Source: an uncultured Methanosarcinaceae archaeon (lineage in GTDB: Archaea; Halobacteriota; Methanosarcinia; Methanosarcinales; Methanosarcinaceae). From it: a stretch of DNA of 64,000 nt. Shown here piece by piece: positions 655 through 50,341 of this stretch. Both the position numbers and the translations under genes were made by a program. The notes below the pieces were generated by a model. It saw only the letters and a list, made by a program, of their open reading frames with translations, was not told the DNA's origin and did not search any database. The DNA is taken from positions 26,719 through 90,718 of the forward strand of contig CAVRJG010000046.1 of the NCBI GenBank assembly GCA_963721455.1, in the 5' to 3' direction. Each line of letters starts with the position of its first letter. Position 1 is the first letter of the stretch.

Positions 655-1822
655 CTGCCTCCTCGATACAGGCCTCCATACTTCCGTAGACGGCTTCAGC
701 CCTGCACATCCCTGGCACGTAAGCGAGAGCTTTTCCCGAGTTTACCATGACGCAGGAATAATTGTTGGTAGCCGGAGAAACCACCATACAGGTGTCACAG
801 ATAACCTTAGCTCCACTTTCTTCAATAGTCCGAATCTGCTCCGGATAACGTTTTGCAAGTTCCCTTGAGGTAAAAATCCAGAACTCTTTCGAAACGGTTT
901 TTCCTTTCAGGAGTTCAGCTGCCTTTTCAAGCTCGGCTGCAGAGCAGTGAGGACATCCTATAGTTATCAATTCGGGTTCTCGGCAGGCTTTTCTCCGGCT
1001 CTCGTAAACGTCGTCAAGCTGATTTCTCTCAATAGTAATTTTCTCTGCCGGTTCTTCAAAATCCAGCCTGCAAGCTTCAGGCGTGACACCGTCCACATGG
1101 TAAAGGGCAACTGCCCCTGAAGCTGCCATTGCAGCTCCGAGAGATTTTAATTCATCTGCGTCCGGAATATTCCTGAGATGAATAAGAGGCACTCTGCTCC
1201 CTACAAGTTTGCCGGCCACATAGCCAAGTGCGCCGTAATCCGATTCCTTCAATGAGCATTCCACATCAATTGAAACCTCAGGCACACGGTTTTCGTCCAG
1301 ATGAAACCCGTAGTTTGCGGTTTTCCCGAGGAGTGCCGCAGAGAGGGCTGATGGTCCACCTTCCCGGTTTGTCCTGGCTCCGATCACGGAGTTTGCATAG
1401 GAGACGGCTGATGATTCGCTCCAGGCCAGGTGGTCCCCGTAACTGACATCAAAACCCACAAGGGTATAAGGTGTGCACGTGCACTCACAGCTAATTCCCA
1501 GCTTTTCATATGCCTGAATGATTAACTTTTGTTTTTCCGCAAAATCAGGCGAGATCCTGAGCCTTTCCCAGTCTTTCAGGTCCATTCCCGCAGGGTTCAG
1601 AATTGCAGGGACCTTGACTCTGCCCTGCAGGTCTGAGATCCATTCAAGGCCTGCATCGCCTATCGTTTTGTAAGAAACACCCGCTATCTGGGCGCTTTTG
1701 ATGGGGATAAGCCTATCTGCACCGTAAATGTCTCCAAGGGCCACCAGGATCTCAATGGCCTGCCTTAGAGTCTCCCCGGCTCCTCCATTCAAAATATTCT
1801 CTTCTTCTTTTGTGAGGTACAT
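617..1822 (-). CDS. Aconitase X catalytic subunit (DUF521); likely phosphomevalonate dehydratase large subunit
   Basis: MYLTKEEE start, CTCTPY, WSESSAVSYANSVIGARTNREG, GCPH and DTCMVV motifs. Confidence 0.88.
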   Translation of the reverse strand: MYLTKEEENILNGGAGETLRQAIEILVALGDIYGADRLIPIKSAQIAGVSYKTIGDAGLEWISDLQGRVKVPAILNPAGMDLKDWERLRISPDFAEKQKLIIQAYEKLGISCECTCTPYTLVGFDVSYGDHLAWSESSAVSYANSVIGARTNREGGPSALSAALLGKTANYGFHLDENRVPEVSIDVECSLKESDYGALGYVAGKLVGSRVPLIHLRNIPDADELKSLGAAMAASGAVALYHVDGVTPEACRLDFEEPAEKITIERNQLDDVYESRRKACREPELITIGCPHCSAAELEKAAELLKGKTVSKEFWIFTSRELAKRYPEQIRTIEESGAKVICDTCMVVSPATNNYSCVMVNSGKALAYVPGMCRAEAVYGSMEACIEEAVGRTAKTAGGSY

Positions 1823-1928
1823 GCAAATTCACTCTGTAATTGCCAGTGCTTGAAAAAATTTTTATGTCCGCGCCTGCATGCCTTCTATTAAAGAGGTTCC
1901 GACAAGCTGCCTTTATTTATCCTTTTAT

Positions 1929-3197
1929 TTATTCTTCCGGGATCACTGCCCTTTCGAAATTTTCTTTCTCTACAAGGATCTTTGTAGCATCAATTCCCAC
2001 TTTTGTGGTCGTCCCATCAGGAGCCCCTCTCGGGTCTAAGGAACTGCCGCGGACATTAGAGATAACAAGAATATCCATATCCCCTTTTACCCTGGTGGCA
2101 ATTGCAAACTCAACATCATTAGGGTCAAAAATATTTATATCTTCGTCCACAACAACCACATGCTTGAGGCTCGTATGAGCTGCAAAGGCTGCCATAATAG
2201 CGTTTTTCCCGTCTCCTTCGGTCTGTTTCTCGATCTGAACAACTGCATGAAGATAACAGCATCCCCCTTCTGTCAGCACCACGTTTTTAACAGTGGTAAC
2301 TTCCCCGACAGCCCTGTAAATCCTGGGCTCGTAAGGCACACCCATCATCAGGAGATGCTCCGGGCCAGCCGGCAAAATCCCGTGATAGATCGGGTCTTTC
2401 CTGTGGATAATTCGGGTGATATGGATAACAGGTTCTTTTCTTACCACATCGTAGGTTCCCGTAATGTCCACAAAAGGCCCTTCATCAACCTTTTCTACGG
2501 GATCAACATAACCTTCAAGCACAATCTCGGCATGAGGAACCTTTACTCCATTTGCACACTCAAAAAGTTCCACAGGGGCACCCCGCAGGGCAGCTGCATA
2601 TTCGAATTCTTTTCCTGCAGGAACCCTTGTAGAAGTCGCGTAAATAATTGTCGGATCGCAGCCGAGCACAATTGCAACAGGTAGAGGTTCGCCTTTTTCG
2701 GCGGCTTTTTTGTGCAGGAGGTAGGTATGCCTTGGAGGAACCAGGCGGGCTGCGAGTTTATCTTTTCCTGCGAGCATAAGGCGGTGAATAGAAGCGTTAA
2801 TTGTGCCTCCGTATTCGGAAACCACAATTCCTGCAGTTATATAAGGTGCTCCGTCTTTTTCAAAATGGGTGAGGATAGGGAGTTTTGTCAGGTCAACCTG
2901 ATCTTCCACGACCTCCAGGGTTGGAGACTCTGTCACCAGCCTCACTTCACCTTCAGGAGATACTTCCGAAAGCTTCTTTATAATTTCTTCTTTAGGGACT
3001 CCGAGCATGGAAGCCAGTTCATCCCTGGACCCAAGAAGGTTCATAATAACCTTTGAACCTGATATATTATGGAAGAGAACCGGGGCTTTTGCGGTTTTTG
3101 CAATTCTTGAAGCTTCGAATTTCGGGGAAACGGGTTGTGGAATTTCTACCAGTTTTCCGTTTTCTTTTAACTGGTCGATGAAATCTCTAAAATTCAT
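1929..3197 (-). CDS. UbiD-family decarboxylase; likely trans-anhydromevalonate 5-phosphate decarboxylase
   Basis: UbiD motifs EGPFVDITG, VVVVDEDI and SSLDP..KVGIDAT. Clustered with the AcnX subunits, as in the archaeal modified mevalonate pathway. Confidence 0.85.
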   Translation of the reverse strand: MNFRDFIDQLKENGKLVEIPQPVSPKFEASRIAKTAKAPVLFHNISGSKVIMNLLGSRDELASMLGVPKEEIIKKLSEVSPEGEVRLVTESPTLEVVEDQVDLTKLPILTHFEKDGAPYITAGIVVSEYGGTINASIHRLMLAGKDKLAARLVPPRHTYLLHKKAAEKGEPLPVAIVLGCDPTIIYATSTRVPAGKEFEYAAALRGAPVELFECANGVKVPHAEIVLEGYVDPVEKVDEGPFVDITGTYDVVRKEPVIHITRIIHRKDPIYHGILPAGPEHLLMMGVPYEPRIYRAVGEVTTVKNVVLTEGGCCYLHAVVQIEKQTEGDGKNAIMAAFAAHTSLKHVVVVDEDINIFDPNDVEFAIATRVKGDMDILVISNVRGSSLDPRGAPDGTTTKVGIDATKILVEKENFERAVIPEE

Positions 3198-3341
3198 GGG
3201 TATCTGAGTATCAAAAAGCTGTCAGATGATAAAAAGATTATCCGATTGCCGAACGTAAATAACTGCCGGACTCACTAATCTTATCAGTGGGCAAACAAAA
3301 CAGGATGAAACAGAGCTTTTACGCCTACAAACCCTGTCATC

Positions 3342-4409
3342 TTAACATTCATCAAGCATGAAAGCCCTGGGCCTTATGATCCTTTTCTTCTCATACTGGT
3401 CAAAGCAGTGAGCTATCCAGCCTGAAACCCTGCCGATTGCAAAGATGGATGTTGCAAGTTGAGGGGGGATATCCATATACTTGTAAATAACTGCCGAGTA
3501 GAAGTCTACGTTCGGATAAATTGGTTTTCCTTTTTTCTCTACAAGTTCACGGATAACAGTGTTTTCGATTGCTTCGGCTGTTTCGTACCAGTGCATATCC
3601 CCTTTTGCTTCTGCGAGTTGCCTGGAAAGCTGCTTGAATATCGTGCCCCTGGGGTCATAAGTCTTGTATACTCGGTGCCCGAAGCCCATGATCTTTTCTT
3701 TCTTTGCGATCTTTTCGAGGACAAATTTCTCTGCATTTTCCGGACAGGCGATTTTTTCGATCATGTTCATGACTTCTGACCTTGCCCCTCCATGCAGGGG
3801 GCCTTTAAGGGTGCAGAGCCCGGAGACAACAGCTGAGTACAGGTCTGAAAGGGTGGAAGCGGTAACTCTTGAAGAGAAAGTGGAAGCATTTAGCTCGTGT
3901 TCGGCACTGAGGATAAAGTCTTTTTCCATGACCTCAGCTTCCAGCTGACTTGGTTTGCTTCCTCTTATCATGTACAGGAAGTTAGCTCCGTGGGAGAGGG
4001 ATTTATCAGGGGGTACAGGTTCTTTTCCATTTGCCACTCTGTAGTACGAAGCAACTATGGTTGGGATCTTGGCAATTAACCGTATGGCTTTTCTCAGATT
4101 TCCTTCTGGAGAGCTGTCGTTAATGTCCGGGTCGAATTGTGATATGAAAGAAACAATTGTACGCAGCGCTTCCATAGAGTCAATATTGAAATTGCACATG
4201 CGGATAATGTCCATTACTTCTTTGTTGATTTCACGCTCCCCATGCAGGCGGGATGAATATTCGGCAAGCTCCTGATCTCCAGGGAGTTCTCCCAGGATAA
4301 GCAGATAGGATACTGCATCGTAGGGAAGCTCAACCAGCTGATTAATGTCTATTTCCCTGTATTTCAGAGTGCCCTCTAACCCGTCTATGAAACATATATT
4401 TTTACTCAT
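3342..4409 (-). CDS. gltA: Citrate synthase
   Basis: EHELNAST, GPLHGGA, IMGFGHRVYK.YDPR and YPNVDFY motifs. Confidence 0.93.
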   Translation of the reverse strand: MSKNICFIDGLEGTLKYREIDINQLVELPYDAVSYLLILGELPGDQELAEYSSRLHGEREINKEVMDIIRMCNFNIDSMEALRTIVSFISQFDPDINDSSPEGNLRKAIRLIAKIPTIVASYYRVANGKEPVPPDKSLSHGANFLYMIRGSKPSQLEAEVMEKDFILSAEHELNASTFSSRVTASTLSDLYSAVVSGLCTLKGPLHGGARSEVMNMIEKIACPENAEKFVLEKIAKKEKIMGFGHRVYKTYDPRGTIFKQLSRQLAEAKGDMHWYETAEAIENTVIRELVEKKGKPIYPNVDFYSAVIYKYMDIPPQLATSIFAIGRVSGWIAHCFDQYEKKRIIRPRAFMLDEC

Positions 4410-27420: not shown

Positions 27421-27494
27421 AGCCTCGTGCGTGATTTGAACACGCGACCTAGTGATTACAAGTCACTCGCTCTACCGGGCTGAGCCAACGAGGC
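27421..27494 (-). tRNA. tRNA-Thr (anticodon TGT)
   Basis: Reverse complement GCCTCGTTGGCTCAGCCCGGTAGAGCGAGTGACTTGTAATCACTAGGTCGCGTGTTCAAATCACGCACGAGGCT folds as a cloverleaf with anticodon loop CT-TGT-AA. Confidence 0.95.
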
Positions 27495-45406: not shown

Positions 45407-47332
45407 TTAATAAAAGTCCAGATTTACACCCTTCTGGTCGAGTACCTTTTTCAACTCTTCGTAAGCCGTGAAAAGCTCTTGCTTCTGCCTGCCGACGGTT
45501 TCAAGCCTGGGCTCGGCCTTAAGCCAGATATCCCTCTCCCCGGTCCCTCTCGTGACCGCAACACAGGCAAGCATATCCCCATGGGTCAGCCTGTATATTG
45601 AGTCAAGTCCCGTAGGGGTGACCCAGGCAGGAGAAACGATTTTAAGTTTTTCTATAAGTTCTTTCCAGCTGAGATTTCCCGACGCCCGGAGGTTGAGCTG
45701 GAGGTGGGTACGTTCCCCTGCGACTTTTTCATCAACATTTTTGAGGAAAGTACTGTACTCAGGATCTTTCTCGTTGATCTCTCTTGCTTCATAACGGGAA
45801 AGTTCTTCGGCTTCCTCTTCGAAGAAAGGCGCAAGATTAACCCTGCTTGAAGGTTTTGTCATCAGGGAAATCCCGAAGAAAGCGATAGCACTCAGAGACA
45901 TTCCCACGATAACCCCGTGGCTCATGAGAATCGGGTGAATGCTTTCCAGATAATTGGGGGCCAGAGGGGGCGTTTTTATAAGGTCCAGAACCACAAGGGC
46001 TACCTGAACTGTAAACCCTACTACCATGCCTGCAAAGGCTCCTTCCTTGGTAGCTCGCTTCCAGTACAGGCCTCCCATGAGCGGGAAGAAGTAGGAGGAA
46101 CTTGCAATGAAAGTTGCGATGTGAATTGCATCGATAATATTGGGGATTACAAATGAGCCTGCCGTTGCAGCGAGTATGATAAACAGCACACTGATCCTGT
46201 TTATCAACATCATTTCCTTCATTGTTGCATCTGGCTTTATATACCTCTGGTAAATGTCCCTTGAGATACAGGAAGCTCCTGATGTTGAAAAAGTGTCCGT
46301 ACAGGACATGGAAGCTGCTGCAAGCCCTATTGCACTGAAGGCTATTACCGCGGGGGCAGAGGCGAAACGTTCACTGACAAAGGTCAGGAGTGCGGGCTCT
46401 GCAAGGGCCATGCCTGCAGGAAAACCCATTCCTGCTATTTCAGGATATATGGCGTTGAGGGCTATTGCAATCACAGCGCAGGCTGCAAAGACCACAGTAA
46501 TCATAAGAGAGCCAATTATCATCCCAAGACTGGCAGATTTTCCATCTCTTGCAGCCCAGACTTTCTGCCAGGGGTCCTGCTCGGTAATCCAGCCCGGAAT
46601 TATAGCCAGGATAAAGATCAAAACCATAGGAAGGCCGATTGAGAAGGGATTCCACCAGTCCCCGGATACATTTCCGAAAAGCTCTGAAGCGCTTATCGCA
46701 GTAGTATTGAGGCCTCCATCCGCGACTGTTCCTACTGCGGCAAAAGCTATTCCTACTGCGAAGAGGGCAAGGAAGGAAAACTGGATGACATCCGTCCAGA
46801 TTACTGCATACAGCCCTCCGAGAGTTACGTAAAGGGAAACCGCAACTGCAACAATGGCTGCAGCGTAGAAAGGATCAAGGCCGTAAAAGACCTGCAGCAC
46901 AAGGGAAAGTCCTGTAATGTCGGCTACTGAAAAAAGAATCATTACAACAGTGATGATCAGGGCAATCGGCCATCTGACTATACTGCCGTAGCGCTGTTCC
47001 AGAAGTTCGGGCTGGGTGATTGCAGGCAGGTTTTTGATCTTTCCCACAAGTACGGCAATGATAAGGAGGGCGAGGATATTGGGAGCCACAAATCCCCATA
47101 TAGAACCCATTCCCTGAAGCATATAAAACCCGACAACCGCAAGAATTCCACCGGCTGTCAACCAGGAAGCTGCGGCTGAAAACCCCAGAGCTGAGGGTCC
47201 TATCCTGCGCCCTGCAAGCCAGAAGTCCGTAACGGATTTCTGTCTACTATTAAAATACCAGCCAATAGCAACAAGTCCGGCTATATAAACTGCAAGCATT
47301 ACAAGGAAAATACTGTAACCATCCATATGCAA
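45407..47332 (-). CDS. Sodium:solute symporter family protein
   Basis: DFWLAGR, GGLYAVIWTDVIQ and GLYWKRAT..GA motifs; about 13 TM segments. Confidence 0.9.
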   Translation of the reverse strand: MHMDGYSIFLVMLAVYIAGLVAIGWYFNSRQKSVTDFWLAGRRIGPSALGFSAAASWLTAGGILAVVGFYMLQGMGSIWGFVAPNILALLIIAVLVGKIKNLPAITQPELLEQRYGSIVRWPIALIITVVMILFSVADITGLSLVLQVFYGLDPFYAAAIVAVAVSLYVTLGGLYAVIWTDVIQFSFLALFAVGIAFAAVGTVADGGLNTTAISASELFGNVSGDWWNPFSIGLPMVLIFILAIIPGWITEQDPWQKVWAARDGKSASLGMIIGSLMITVVFAACAVIAIALNAIYPEIAGMGFPAGMALAEPALLTFVSERFASAPAVIAFSAIGLAAASMSCTDTFSTSGASCISRDIYQRYIKPDATMKEMMLINRISVLFIILAATAGSFVIPNIIDAIHIATFIASSSYFFPLMGGLYWKRATKEGAFAGMVVGFTVQVALVVLDLIKTPPLAPNYLESIHPILMSHGVIVGMSLSAIAFFGISLMTKPSSRVNLAPFFEEEAEELSRYEAREINEKDPEYSTFLKNVDEKVAGERTHLQLNLRASGNLSWKELIEKLKIVSPAWVTPTGLDSIYRLTHGDMLACVAVTRGTGERDIWLKAEPRLETVGRQKQELFTAYEELKKVLDQKGVNLDFY

Positions 47333-47397: not shown

Positions 47398-47463
47398 CGT
47401 TTCTGAAATATATTACCGTTTATATATTGCCGTTTCTGAAATATATTACCGTTTATATATTGC
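47398..47463. repeat. Perfect 33-bp tandem duplication containing a TATA-like box
   Basis: cgtttctgaaatatattaccgtttatatattgc occurs at 47398-47430 and 47431-47463. Confidence 0.85.
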
Positions 47464-47832
47464 CATTGTATCGACATACAAATAAATAAACTTTTACTTC
47501 GGTTTATACTGTTTATCTCTCTTTTTGCCGGGGGAATGGCTCTTTTCTTCCTCTCCACGCAAGTTAACTTGAATTCAAATGATCTTTTACTTCTATACTT
47601 ATGAGCGGAAATATTTACACTGCATCCATTACAGAAAAGATTTACACTTTACTGAATTCGCGAGCAAGATTCATTAAAACAAGGATTAAAACAAAATAAA
47701 GCGGGGAGAGCTGAAAGATTTAACCAATAACGAACTTAACCAGATCTTCCAGGATGAAGATGGAAACAAACAGTTCAAAAAATACCGGAACTGGATTATA
47801 GCTATATCAAGAAGTAAGGAGATACCCTATTT

Positions 47833-48045
47833 ATGGTTTTATTGGACGACAGCAAACCATATAAAATAAATTTTAATTTAATTTGTATGAGATGCAAGCA
47901 TTTTCACATAGAGGATGTGAAACTCCATACATGCGATGCGTTCCCGGACGGTATCCCTGATGAAATATGGCGGGGAGACAATGACCATAAAAAGCCGAAT
48001 CCTGGAGATCATGGAATACAATTCGAGCAAATATCACAAGACTAA
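47833..48045 (+). CDS. Small Cys/His protein (CxxC...CDAFPDGIP...[11 protein letters not shown]), cassette 1; putative immunity protein
   Basis: 70-aa ORF preceded by AAGGAG; 52/70 identical to the cassette-3 gene. Confidence 0.75.
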   Translation: MVLLDDSKPYKINFNLICMRCKHFHIEDVKLHTCDAFPDGIPDEIWRGDNDHKKPNPGDHGIQFEQISQD

Positions 48046-48124
48046 AATTTTTTATAGAACATCTTTCATTTACTTATTGCAGTTATCGAAACACTATCCT
48101 GGAAAAATTTCACCCACTTTAAGA

Positions 48125-48180
48125 TAAGGGCCCCTGAGTTGACCGGGGGCTTGGATTCTCTTCCTTTCTCTCTTCTTTTC
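48125..48180 (+). terminator. GC hairpin followed by a pyrimidine tract at the end of cassette 1
   Basis: gcccc-tgagttgaccg-ggggc followed by ttctcttcctttctctcttcttttc. Confidence 0.45.
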
Positions 48181-48222
48181 CGAATTCGCGAGCAAGATCC
48201 ACTAAAACAAGGATTGAAACAC

Positions 48223-48372
48223 ACCGCCGAGCATGAGGTATTATATCAAAAAGGACAGCATTTAAAATTATTAGGAGTTGAAGGAGTTGATAGGGTCGGC
48301 ATGATAGGAGATGACGGCACATGGGTTGCCAGCACAAACAAAATAAGACTGTTATACTGTAAGCTAATTTAA
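48223..48372 (+). pseudogene. 3' stub of a probable ADP-ribosyltransferase-like toxin gene (cassette 2)
   Basis: Begins right after repeat 2 and reads TAEHEVLYQKGQHLKLLGVE...IRLLYCKLI*. The E-x-E-V-L motif plus terminal beta-strands match VIP2/C3-like ART tails. Confidence 0.5.
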
Positions 48373-48436
48373 ACAGATCAACATTATATATACCCGAATC
48401 GTCCTGGAAAGCAGACAAACAGGAGGAAAAGCAGCC

Positions 48437-48577
48437 ATGCCAAAAGATGAGAACGGTCGCGAGATACCGAGCCGGTTTTATATTGATGACGGCGACCTGC
48501 GATTTATTGACGCGGCGCCCTTAACAGAAGAGGACCGGGCCGAGCTTAAGCGTATGAAAGAACTTATGGAAAAATAA
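48437..48577 (+). CDS. 46-aa acidic small protein (cassette 2); putative antitoxin
   Basis: AGGAGG RBS at 48421-48426; MPKDENGREIPSRFYIDDGDLRFIDAAPLTEEDRAELKRMKELMEK*. Too short for the ORF track. Confidence 0.65.
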   Translation: MPKDENGREIPSRFYIDDGDLRFIDAAPLTEEDRAELKRMKELMEK

Positions 48578-48733
48578 AGGATTTAAAGAAGTGAGTACAG
48601 GAGCGCGAAAAAACAGTGGAAGAATTAAACTTTAAAAAGTATTCGGAAGAGACATTCGCGAGCAAGATCCACTAAAACAAGGATTGAAACCTGAACTACT
48701 CATTTATCAAGAAGTAAAAGGGATATTATACAT

Positions 48734-48946
48734 ATGGTTCTATTAGATGATCGCGAATTATATAGGATCAATTTTAATCTGATTTGTATTAAATGCAAGC
48801 ACTATCACATAGAAAATACAAACCTCAACTCCTGTGATGCGTTCCCGGATGGGATCCCGGATGAGATCTGGAGGGGGGACAATGACCACATAAAACCGTA
48901 TCCTGGGGATCACGGTATCCAATTCGAGCCGGAAGAAGAAGACTAA
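48734..48946 (+). CDS. Small Cys/His protein, cassette 3; homologue of the cassette-1 gene
   Basis: 70-aa ORF with [23 protein letters not shown] and [11 protein letters not shown]. Confidence 0.75.
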
Positions 48947-49189
48947 AATTGTTTATAGAATATCTTTCATTTATTTGTTGCAGTTATTGAAACACTATCC
49001 TGGAAAAATTCTACACATTTTAAGAATTCGCGAGCAAGATCCATTAAAACAAAGATTAAAACGTAATCCTTTTTTAAGATAATTTCAGGTTACTTTTTTC
49101 AGTTTCTTTTATTTTTGCAGCTTCTAATGGTTAAAAAAGATTTATTATGCCTTTAATTTCTATTTTCTTCCAAAATATTACTTTTTTAA

Positions 49190-50341
<1,152 letters not shown>

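Follow-up and report, generated by a model that had tools for sequence, protein, structure and literature searches.

Within a 64,000-nucleotide (nt) stretch of DNA from an uncultured archaeon of the Methanosarcinaceae (assembly GCA_963721455.1, contig CAVRJG010000046.1, positions 26,719 to 90,718 of the forward strand; hereafter the window), four copies of a CRISPR repeat delimit three intervals, each of which carries a gene in the place of an ordinary spacer. We read this block, located at positions 47656 to 49062 of the window, as the relic of a chromosomal Methanosarcina CRISPR array in which three spacer positions hold captured gene-sized pseudo-spacers, and we give this reading a probability of about 0.6. 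More generally, gene-sized inserts are best read as a recurrent and little-known feature of Methanosarcina arrays, the window being one instance of it.

The four 37-nt repeats all lie on the + strand, at 47656..47692 (R1), 48184..48220 (R2), 48654..48690 (R3) and 49026..49062 (R4), and full-length copies bound all six insert junctions. R2 and R3 are exact copies of the consensus while R1 (T16, T19 and A33) and R4 (T19, A27 and A33) carry three mismatches each. R1 to R4 score 43, 56.5, 56.5 and 41.1 bits, respectively, against the Rfam family CRISPR-DR7 (RF01320), for which the gathering score is 37. When the window was shuffled 100 times with its dinucleotides preserved, the repeat found no match. 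The window repeat is identical to the canonical array repeat of the genus Methanosarcina and is found in regular arrays of same-genus genomes; loci L020 and L022, for instance, contain 28 and 41 copies with a spacing of ~72 nt. In an exact-repeat scan of species genomes, the named records belonged to Methanosarcina and close relatives. The repeat coordinates, co-orientation, mismatches and interval lengths given in the initial annotation of this stretch, which had been made from the sequence alone, proved exact on re-scan, and its attribution of the repeat to Methanosarcina is confirmed by the RF01320 matches and the identical repeats of same-genus arrays. Folding of the repeat yields a stem of 5 bp at most, which is not better than that of shuffled sequences.

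The inter-repeat intervals measure 491 bp (insert 1, 47693..48183), 433 bp (insert 2, 48221..48653) and 335 bp (insert 3, 48691..49025), and the regular spacing of CRISPR arrays, with spacers of ~30-45 nt, is absent from the block. Each interval contains one complete small open reading frame (ORF) on the + strand behind a purine-rich stretch. The outer repeats R1 and R4 have T19 and A33 in common, T19 being the canonical variant in the array of another species as well as a feature of the repeat of a related genome (G016) and of solitary viral repeats, both described below. Since this outer variant differs from the plain consensus of R2 and R3, two repeat lineages are combined in the block as a mosaic.

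Inserts 1 and 3 are paralogous to each other (300 nt at 78% identity, with a second alignment of 321 nt at 79%), a relationship that had escaped the initial annotation. Judged by sequence comparison, they are two diverged copies of one segment of DNA from a head-tailed virus, made up of the end of a Mu-F-like head gene, a gene coding for a 70-amino-acid (aa) protein and its 3' flank. Insert 1 has the gene content observed in proviruses and viral contigs. It carries the 3' end of a broken Mu-F-like head-morphogenesis gene (47758..47817, + strand; 19 codons and a stop), the last 18 codons of which, just before the 70-aa gene, match the C-termini of syntenic Mu-F-like genes at four loci, L049, L032, L241 and L031 (tblastx E values of 0.005, 0.013, 0.047 and 0.23 in a 209-kb set). 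The frame is broken by a stop codon directly upstream. A frame-1 reading of this stub was also compared with a Mu-F-like protein and rejected (BLASTP E value of 38). Insert 3, the second and diverged copy of the viral fragment, begins 43 nt upstream of its 70-aa gene. The initial annotation had described an abrupt 3' gene stub at the start of every interval; this holds for insert 1 as regards these last 18 codons only, the corresponding part of insert 2 has no homologue and that of insert 3 consists of these 43 nt only.

The 70-aa proteins of inserts 1 and 3, p70a (47833..48045, + strand) and p70b (48734..48946, + strand), share 74% identity. p70a is a Cys-rich phage protein, and both match PHROGs family phrog_33375 (E values of 5.9e-9 and 3.2e-9, respectively). 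Homologues were found in 158 protein clusters, all of them hypothetical, with relatives in cultured Flavobacterium and Brevibacillus phages. A relative is encoded by 89 of 123 candidate viral stretches, and at 13 of 15 related loci an ORF of at least 100 codons ends beside the 70-aa gene; the three such ORFs tested belong to Pfam family Phage_Mu_F. In the provirus of genome G007, the terminase large subunit is encoded two genes beyond the Mu-F-like gene, and the ORF standing in portal position between the two showed no match to portal families. One viral contig (L047:4881-5983, IMGVR_UViG_3300010277_000169) has a Mu-F-like gene followed by five paralogous copies of the 70-aa gene in tandem. 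Searches of Pfam, NCBIfam, PADLOC and PDB sequences with the small proteins of the block returned nothing beyond chance, and PHROGs matched the 70-aa proteins only. The AF2 model of p70 (pLDDT 72.7) matched no fold in the PDB, and the ESM Atlas gave no usable lead on the function of the small proteins.

Comparison of p70a with p70b shows saturated synonymous sites (pS 0.75) and few replacements (dN/dS 0.03), which argues that the two copies came from two long-separated viruses rather than from a recent duplication in place. The 3' flank of p70a (48046..48183, + strand) is identical to that of p70b at 69 of its first 78 nt; its end, ahead of R2, is formed by a GC hairpin and a T-rich run. The 3' flanks of the 70-aa genes had no Rfam match and no significant fold, and their pattern is absent from the viral contigs searched. 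The flank in insert 3 (48947-49025) includes the last 8 letters of the repeat, followed by exactly 32 nt before R4.

Insert 2 is of a different kind. An open frame of 49 codons runs in from R2 (stub 2, 48223..48372, + strand), for which no homologue was found in any of 58 genus genomes or among longer proteins. It is followed by a gene coding for a 46-aa acidic protein, p46 (48437..48577, + strand), one of a small family of Methanosarcina proteins whose genes often stand immediately behind CRISPR repeats. Elsewhere in the genus, only the gene core of insert 2 finds a match (131 nt at 78% identity in G017). The p46 family comprises 36 unnamed clusters among 5.8 billion proteins, is absent from the viral contigs, phage records and plasmid records searched, and p46 has no match beyond chance in Pfam, PHROGs, NCBIfam, PADLOC or the PDB. 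In G017 and on three metagenome contigs, close relatives of p46 (59-89% identity) occur as free-standing genes, with no repeats nearby.

Other members of this family are tied to arrays. We found repeats at 7 of 30 p46-family loci scanned; with a second array of Methanosarcina sp. Ant1 included, the 34 family hits in 59 genus genomes comprise 8 next to repeats. The array-linked members, which come from the genome of the window (G000), Ant1 (G050, two arrays), G057 (locus L215), G006, G070 and one metagenome protein, are all in sense orientation and directly after a repeat (9/9). Besides G000, at least five Methanosarcina genomes show this arrangement. Three of them are ORFs of the Ant1 array L154 discussed below and one further member lies in the second Ant1 array; in the metagenome relative, the frame reads straight into the translated repeat. 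The nine include two duplicates of 95% identity, and any statistics on them are weakened by kinship among the genomes. The array-linked p46 family is a new lead.

The chromosomal surroundings of the block indicate that the array is old. To the left lies a gene coding for a 641-aa sodium:solute symporter (45407..47332, - strand; Pfam SSF PF00474, E value of 7.8e-35) and to the right a gene coding for a periplasmic-type solute-binding protein (49253..50341, + strand; Pfam SBP_bac_11, E value of 1.6e-34), which the initial annotation had named as WtpA/ModA-like. Both are syntenic in the related genomes G008, G015 and G016. In G008 and G015 the two flanks are adjacent, without repeat or leader between them. 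In G016, a sister species and the closest relative found, the same intergenic region contains a stretch of ~165 nt with 78-82% identity to canonical array leaders, then directly a single degenerate repeat, then the same downstream flank as found after R4. The alignment with G016 continues through R4 into this common flank, R4 being orthologous to the G016 repeat. The presence of a leader and a repeat at the same site in G016 implies that the common ancestor had a CRISPR array there. Together with the lack of the block in G008 and G015, this supports the claim of the initial annotation that foreign gene-bearing fragments sit in spacer position. The leader of the genus and of G016 finds no match upstream of R1 nor anywhere else in G000.

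Two further candidates from this region were discarded. The 70 nt upstream of R1 were considered as what is left of a fourth, lost cassette (its 3' flank), which would account for the missing leader, but 345-716 of 2000 shuffles matched the alignment scores; at the 5' edge of the G016 leader, a stretch resembling the repeat gave too gapped an alignment to stand as the orthologue of R1. Between the symporter gene and R1, a 33-nt unit with a TTTATATA box occurs twice in exact tandem (positions 47398-47463), against a single copy in the relatives, and may represent a duplicated archaeal promoter element. The sole other feature returned by Rfam or ARAGORN in the window is a tRNA-Thr (TGT) at 27421-27494 on the minus strand.

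The array seems to have outlived its CRISPR-associated (Cas) proteins. The assembly G000 is a draft of 73 contigs, 98.5% complete, in which the window lies on contig C46. A six-frame search of the whole genome returned no match to Cas1 (PF01867), Cas2 (PF09827), Cas6 (PF01881), DevR/Cas7 (PF01905), RAMPs (PF03787) or Cas5 (Cas5d; PF09704), the M. acetivorans control being positive every time. The assembly contains no regular CRISPR array, and at up to 8 mismatches only 18 repeat copies were detected, dispersed over 7 contigs and forming a few one-spacer mini-arrays. The canonical array with cas1, cas2 and cas6 that the initial annotation had predicted for this genome is thus not borne out. Since the cas families searched and the leader are both absent, nothing would be processed or acquired in this genome now.

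Relic repeats are found in G000 at C33 49242-52114, C64 62-4401, C41 47867-49393, C8 89148, C23 11837 and C38 124910, and include three one-spacer mini-arrays. A cupin cassette between the relic repeats of C33 is 85-89% identical to repeat-bounded cassettes in two other genomes, and a 25-nt segment at ~1363-1387 of C64, within a long inter-repeat interval, matches a normal spacer of the Ant1 array at 96%. The tyrosine integrase family PF00589 has five matches in G000, none of them on contig C46.

To place the block in the context of its genus, repeats were sought by exact match in one genome per species, which gave 112 stretches, 80 of them listed; the loci overlap and the counts are approximate. 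Among 1961 repeat-to-repeat distances, 1913 fall within 60-89 nt and 48 are of at least 100 nt, so that gene-sized intervals amount to ~2%. Of the 43 intervals that measure 200-4000 nt, only 3 include a leader, which would mark tandem arrays. We agree with the initial annotation that ordinary CRISPR finders would miss such inserts. The longest ORF is in sense orientation in 24 of 31 long intervals, a count that includes related cassettes and is therefore not one of independent cases. Only nine long intervals are internal to arrays of at least 8 repeats, most lying at decayed array ends. The cargo of the long intervals without a leader comprises, besides many small ORFs without family, genes coding for a DDE (insertion sequence, IS) transposase, a ParE toxin, UbiA, a metallophosphoesterase and a cupin. 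A Fic/Doc and antitoxin pair stands between repeats in at least 5 genomes (74-91% identity; L214:497-1343, L138, L192, L217 and L150), once inverted. Comparing the end composition of giant spacers with that of normal ones yielded no information.

The clearest example of gene-sized inserts in a live-looking array is L154 of Methanosarcina sp. Ant1 (MDTP02000091.1, oriented 837-3474). Amid normal spacers of 32-40 nt, this array holds four cassettes of 311, 482, 483 and 264 nt with one sense ORF each (68-87 aa). Its resident repeat (AA-type) differs from the consensus at positions 6-7, and the 482- and 483-nt cassettes form a block of repeat-482-repeat-483-repeat in which the repeats are of the consensus (CG) type. 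These consensus-type repeats inside an AA-type array argue that the block was imported. The 483-nt cassette recurs at 97% identity in another genome where the neighbouring spacers are different, and free-standing homologues of its gene (71-78%) occur in 13 further genomes, with no repeats near the 8 loci scanned. The 264- and 311-nt cassettes have perfect resident-type repeats on both sides, an arrangement that fits either integration in place with duplication of the repeat or an old import. In the census as a whole, off-type repeats touch 5 of 9 internal giant spacers versus 106 of 1617 normal ones (Fisher p 1.4e-4, from small and non-independent samples). Off-type repeats and the mosaic of the window both point to a spread of cassettes by homologous recombination in shared repeats.

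Possible sources of the inserts were sought in viral and plasmid DNA. The block has no match in phage or plasmid records. A repeat core was detected in five viral stretches. One viral contig, L045 (IMGVR_UViG_3300033889_000615), carries at 3752-3788 a solitary repeat of the T19 variant, as in R1 and R4 and on the same strand, along with a homologue of the 70-aa gene (63% identity) 6.2 kb away. A half-repeat occurs in the G007 provirus (L029:129) and at L046:19825, and two-repeat mini-arrays in L038 and L042. The other p70-bearing loci scanned have no repeat at up to 8 mismatches. A solitary repeat unit of a viral contig stands just upstream of a 418-aa ORF, and L040 is also among the repeat-bearing stretches. 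Only two of 1966 spacers have protospacers in the DNA searched, with TTA and TTG upstream, too few to define a protospacer-adjacent motif.

We propose that the capture of the fragments goes back to a time when the lineage had Cas proteins. It would have taken place either through integration of over-long, untrimmed prespacers or through recombination between DNA of mobile elements and the resident spacers or repeats. Cassettes would later have been shuffled between arrays by homologous recombination in shared repeats. Loss of the cas genes would then have frozen the array, whose leader was lost as well. Today no CRISPR RNA (crRNA) would be made and the small genes could be expressed only from their own or from read-through promoters; they may have been kept by selection or may simply be young. 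For the first capture, we tentatively consider integration of over-long prespacers by the adaptation machinery as one possible route and, to the same degree, such recombination of mobile elements with the resident spacers or repeats as another, while an entry driven by viruses through their solitary repeats seems improbable to us.

Several observations weigh against the reading of the block as a relic array with captured pseudo-spacers. Nothing shows that Cas1-Cas2, which the initial annotation had put forward as the maker of the inserts, produced them or is able to integrate DNA of such length. No donor of the inserts was found, the best relatives reaching 55-66% identity in protein or 70-82% over ~100-190 nt. 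No normal spacer (n=1966) matches the end of any giant spacer, and the route of spacer-guided recombination consequently gains no support. Two captures of one viral stretch in the same orientation are not expected of random faulty integration, and the 88% identity of the 78-nt 3' flanks of p70a and p70b, despite saturated synonymous sites in the genes, is unexplained. The missing leader beside an almost intact R1 requires an extra deletion. Finally, the cas searches rest on a draft of 73 contigs, and related cassettes enter into the counts of both orientation and off-type repeats, which are not independent.

The inserts could have been gathered by a dedicated, integron-like system in which Cas1-Cas2 integrates small genes, the array promoter and Cas6 cuts allow their expression and selection keeps the useful ones. 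All three inserts have complete ORFs with purine-rich ribosome-binding stretches, next to a neighbouring stub that is broken; the sense bias of the long intervals, the position of the array-linked p46 members and their share of the genus hits can be read in the same way, and the 264- and 311-nt Ant1 cassettes lie between repeats such as duplication on integration would give. The suggestion of the initial annotation that the genes were kept because they are useful draws on these same signs, namely the intact ORFs, the sense bias and the uniform orientation of the p46 family, and the support they lend is indirect. Yet a capture function cannot operate in a genome without the cas families searched and without a leader. 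The cargo elsewhere is mixed, with an IS transposase, toxin-antitoxin pairs, housekeeping-type genes and some antisense genes; decayed array ends hold most long intervals; and we found no integrase on the contig, no attC-like element and no 3' recombination site common to the cassettes. Moreover, the strong purifying selection on the 70-aa gene mostly dates from life in viruses, the orientation counts are non-independent and vertical inheritance of an old arrangement could account for part of them. We consider such a system unlikely. A related proposal is that arrays double as carriers of small genes: co-oriented ORFs of the p46 family (acidic, 46-80 aa) and others would be transcribed with the precursor of crRNA, released by Cas6 and moved as repeat-bounded cassettes, and their products would act on CRISPR (as anti-CRISPR, regulator or addiction module) or on viruses, the window being a fossil left after the loss of cas genes. 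This proposal we regard as rather doubtful.

Viruses could themselves have driven the insertion, through recombination of a viral solitary repeat (or the action of an integrase) with a host repeat, by accident or as a counter-defence, with later deletions. The repeat cores, half-repeats and two-repeat mini-arrays of viral stretches make this conceivable, as does L045, which carries both a T19 repeat and a 70-aa homologue. Recombination between solitary repeats and host arrays is discussed in the part of the review literature consulted (PMC8616872), and integration of prophages into CRISPR repeats has been reported for Streptococcus pyogenes (bioRxiv 10.1101/2020.10.09.333658, from the portion of that preprint available). 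However, the L045 repeat lies far from the 70-aa gene, at neither junction, the remaining p70-bearing loci are free of repeats, and a viral gene is interrupted where the repeat borders the left side of insert 1, an outcome that plain homologous recombination does not give. The lack of the p46 family in viral, phage and plasmid records and the chromosomal position of the block, flanked by conserved genes and without further provirus remnants around it, are further points against this scenario, which we deem improbable. There is also the possibility of an artefact, be it the mis-assembly of CRISPR reads with unrelated contigs or chance repeats. The assembly is in many contigs, no public sequencing run holds half of the stretch, no RNA run is listed among its holders, and no single record elsewhere spans the whole block. 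Against an artefact stand the shuffles without any repeat, the same architecture in many independent assemblies, and the repeat of a sister species at the same site. In addition, metagenome contigs from four runs of two studies cover the transitions from the flank to R1, from R2 to insert 2 and from insert 2 to R3 at 95-100% identity; three of the six junctions, including both those of insert 2, are thus independently covered, although the sequence of one run deviates from the window past R1. This coverage lends modest support to the assembly, as the best runs may be related to the source sample; a lack of coverage at other parts carries no weight. We give an artefact hardly any credence.

If the block is indeed a relic array with captured pseudo-spacers, the window alone has a modest meaning: a dead array recording past contact with viruses, in a lineage since left without CRISPR-Cas. 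Its interest lies in the genus. Arrays are viewed today as lists of 30-45-nt guides, a view enforced by array finders. If gene-sized sense inserts are a regular minority in Methanosarcina, arrays would also capture and exchange genes, and over-long integration, or spacer- or repeat-guided recombination with viruses, would be commoner than two isolated published cases suggest. The array-tied family of small proteins would then offer a concrete candidate for a novel function related to CRISPR, one that could be tested in the genetically tractable Methanosarcina species. In the full-text literature, supplements aside, we found neither gene-bearing giant spacers in Methanosarcina nor a protein family tied to arrays.

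The idea of a gene-bearing insert within an array nevertheless has precedent, as far as the available parts of two reports go (PMC3718332, PMC11823653). In Sulfolobus islandicus LAL14/1, the element SiL-E1 is a ~2-kb piece of a pING1-like plasmid between perfect array repeats, for which its authors propose faulty protospacer processing or recombination with resident or matching spacers (PMC3718332, in part). SiL-E1 and the inserts of the window are alike in being pieces of mobile elements far over spacer length, with full-length array repeats on both sides, in an archaeal array. They differ in that the window has three adjacent and smaller inserts (335-491 bp) with one complete small gene each, two of them copies of the same viral stretch, in an orphan array without cas genes and with cassettes recurring across the genus. 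In Campylobacter coli, the gene erm(N) was found among the spacers of a type II-C CRISPR array (PMC11823653, in part). Here too a whole gene lies between CRISPR repeats, and erm(N) is expressed and sits among normal spacers; unlike the genes of the block, it is one lone resistance gene, its array is a bacterial Cas9 array accompanied by cas genes, and neither a viral fragment nor a family of small proteins is involved. Spacers of at least 100 nt in bacterial data sets were mostly transposons according to the part of that survey drawn on here (PMC4524480).

Orphan and degenerate arrays are reviewed in PMC8616872, available to us in part. The block resembles them: its repeats belong to a known family, the outer ones are mutated, its genome lacks cas genes and it has no immune function. 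Those arrays keep spacers of 30-45 nt, however, while every spacer position of the block holds a gene. The same partial source describes solitary repeat units borne by viruses and their possible recombination with host arrays, and RNA anti-CRISPRs are treated in the available part of PMC10651486. Viral contigs of the donor family of inserts 1 and 3 likewise have the host repeat, in single or paired copies; by contrast, the block of the window occupies a conserved array site of the host chromosome, and the viral repeats are not at its junctions.

Integrons consist of tandem, co-oriented and promoterless-looking cassettes with a repeated site between them, and the same cassette can be found in different arrays. 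The cassettes of the window and of other Methanosarcina arrays are likewise tandem, co-oriented and separated by repeats, and the same cassette recurs in different arrays. They differ from integrons by the lack of an IntI-type integrase on the contig and by having only the CRISPR repeat, and no attC, as a common 3' element; their exchange is better explained by homologous recombination than by an integron-type route. In CreTA modules, a repeat-flanked pseudo-spacer RNA represses a neighbouring small toxin through Cascade, beside cas genes, whereas the cas families searched were not found in the genome of the window. Set against these systems, the locus fails as an integron and as a functional CRISPR system, and it passes as an orphan array with pseudo-spacers.

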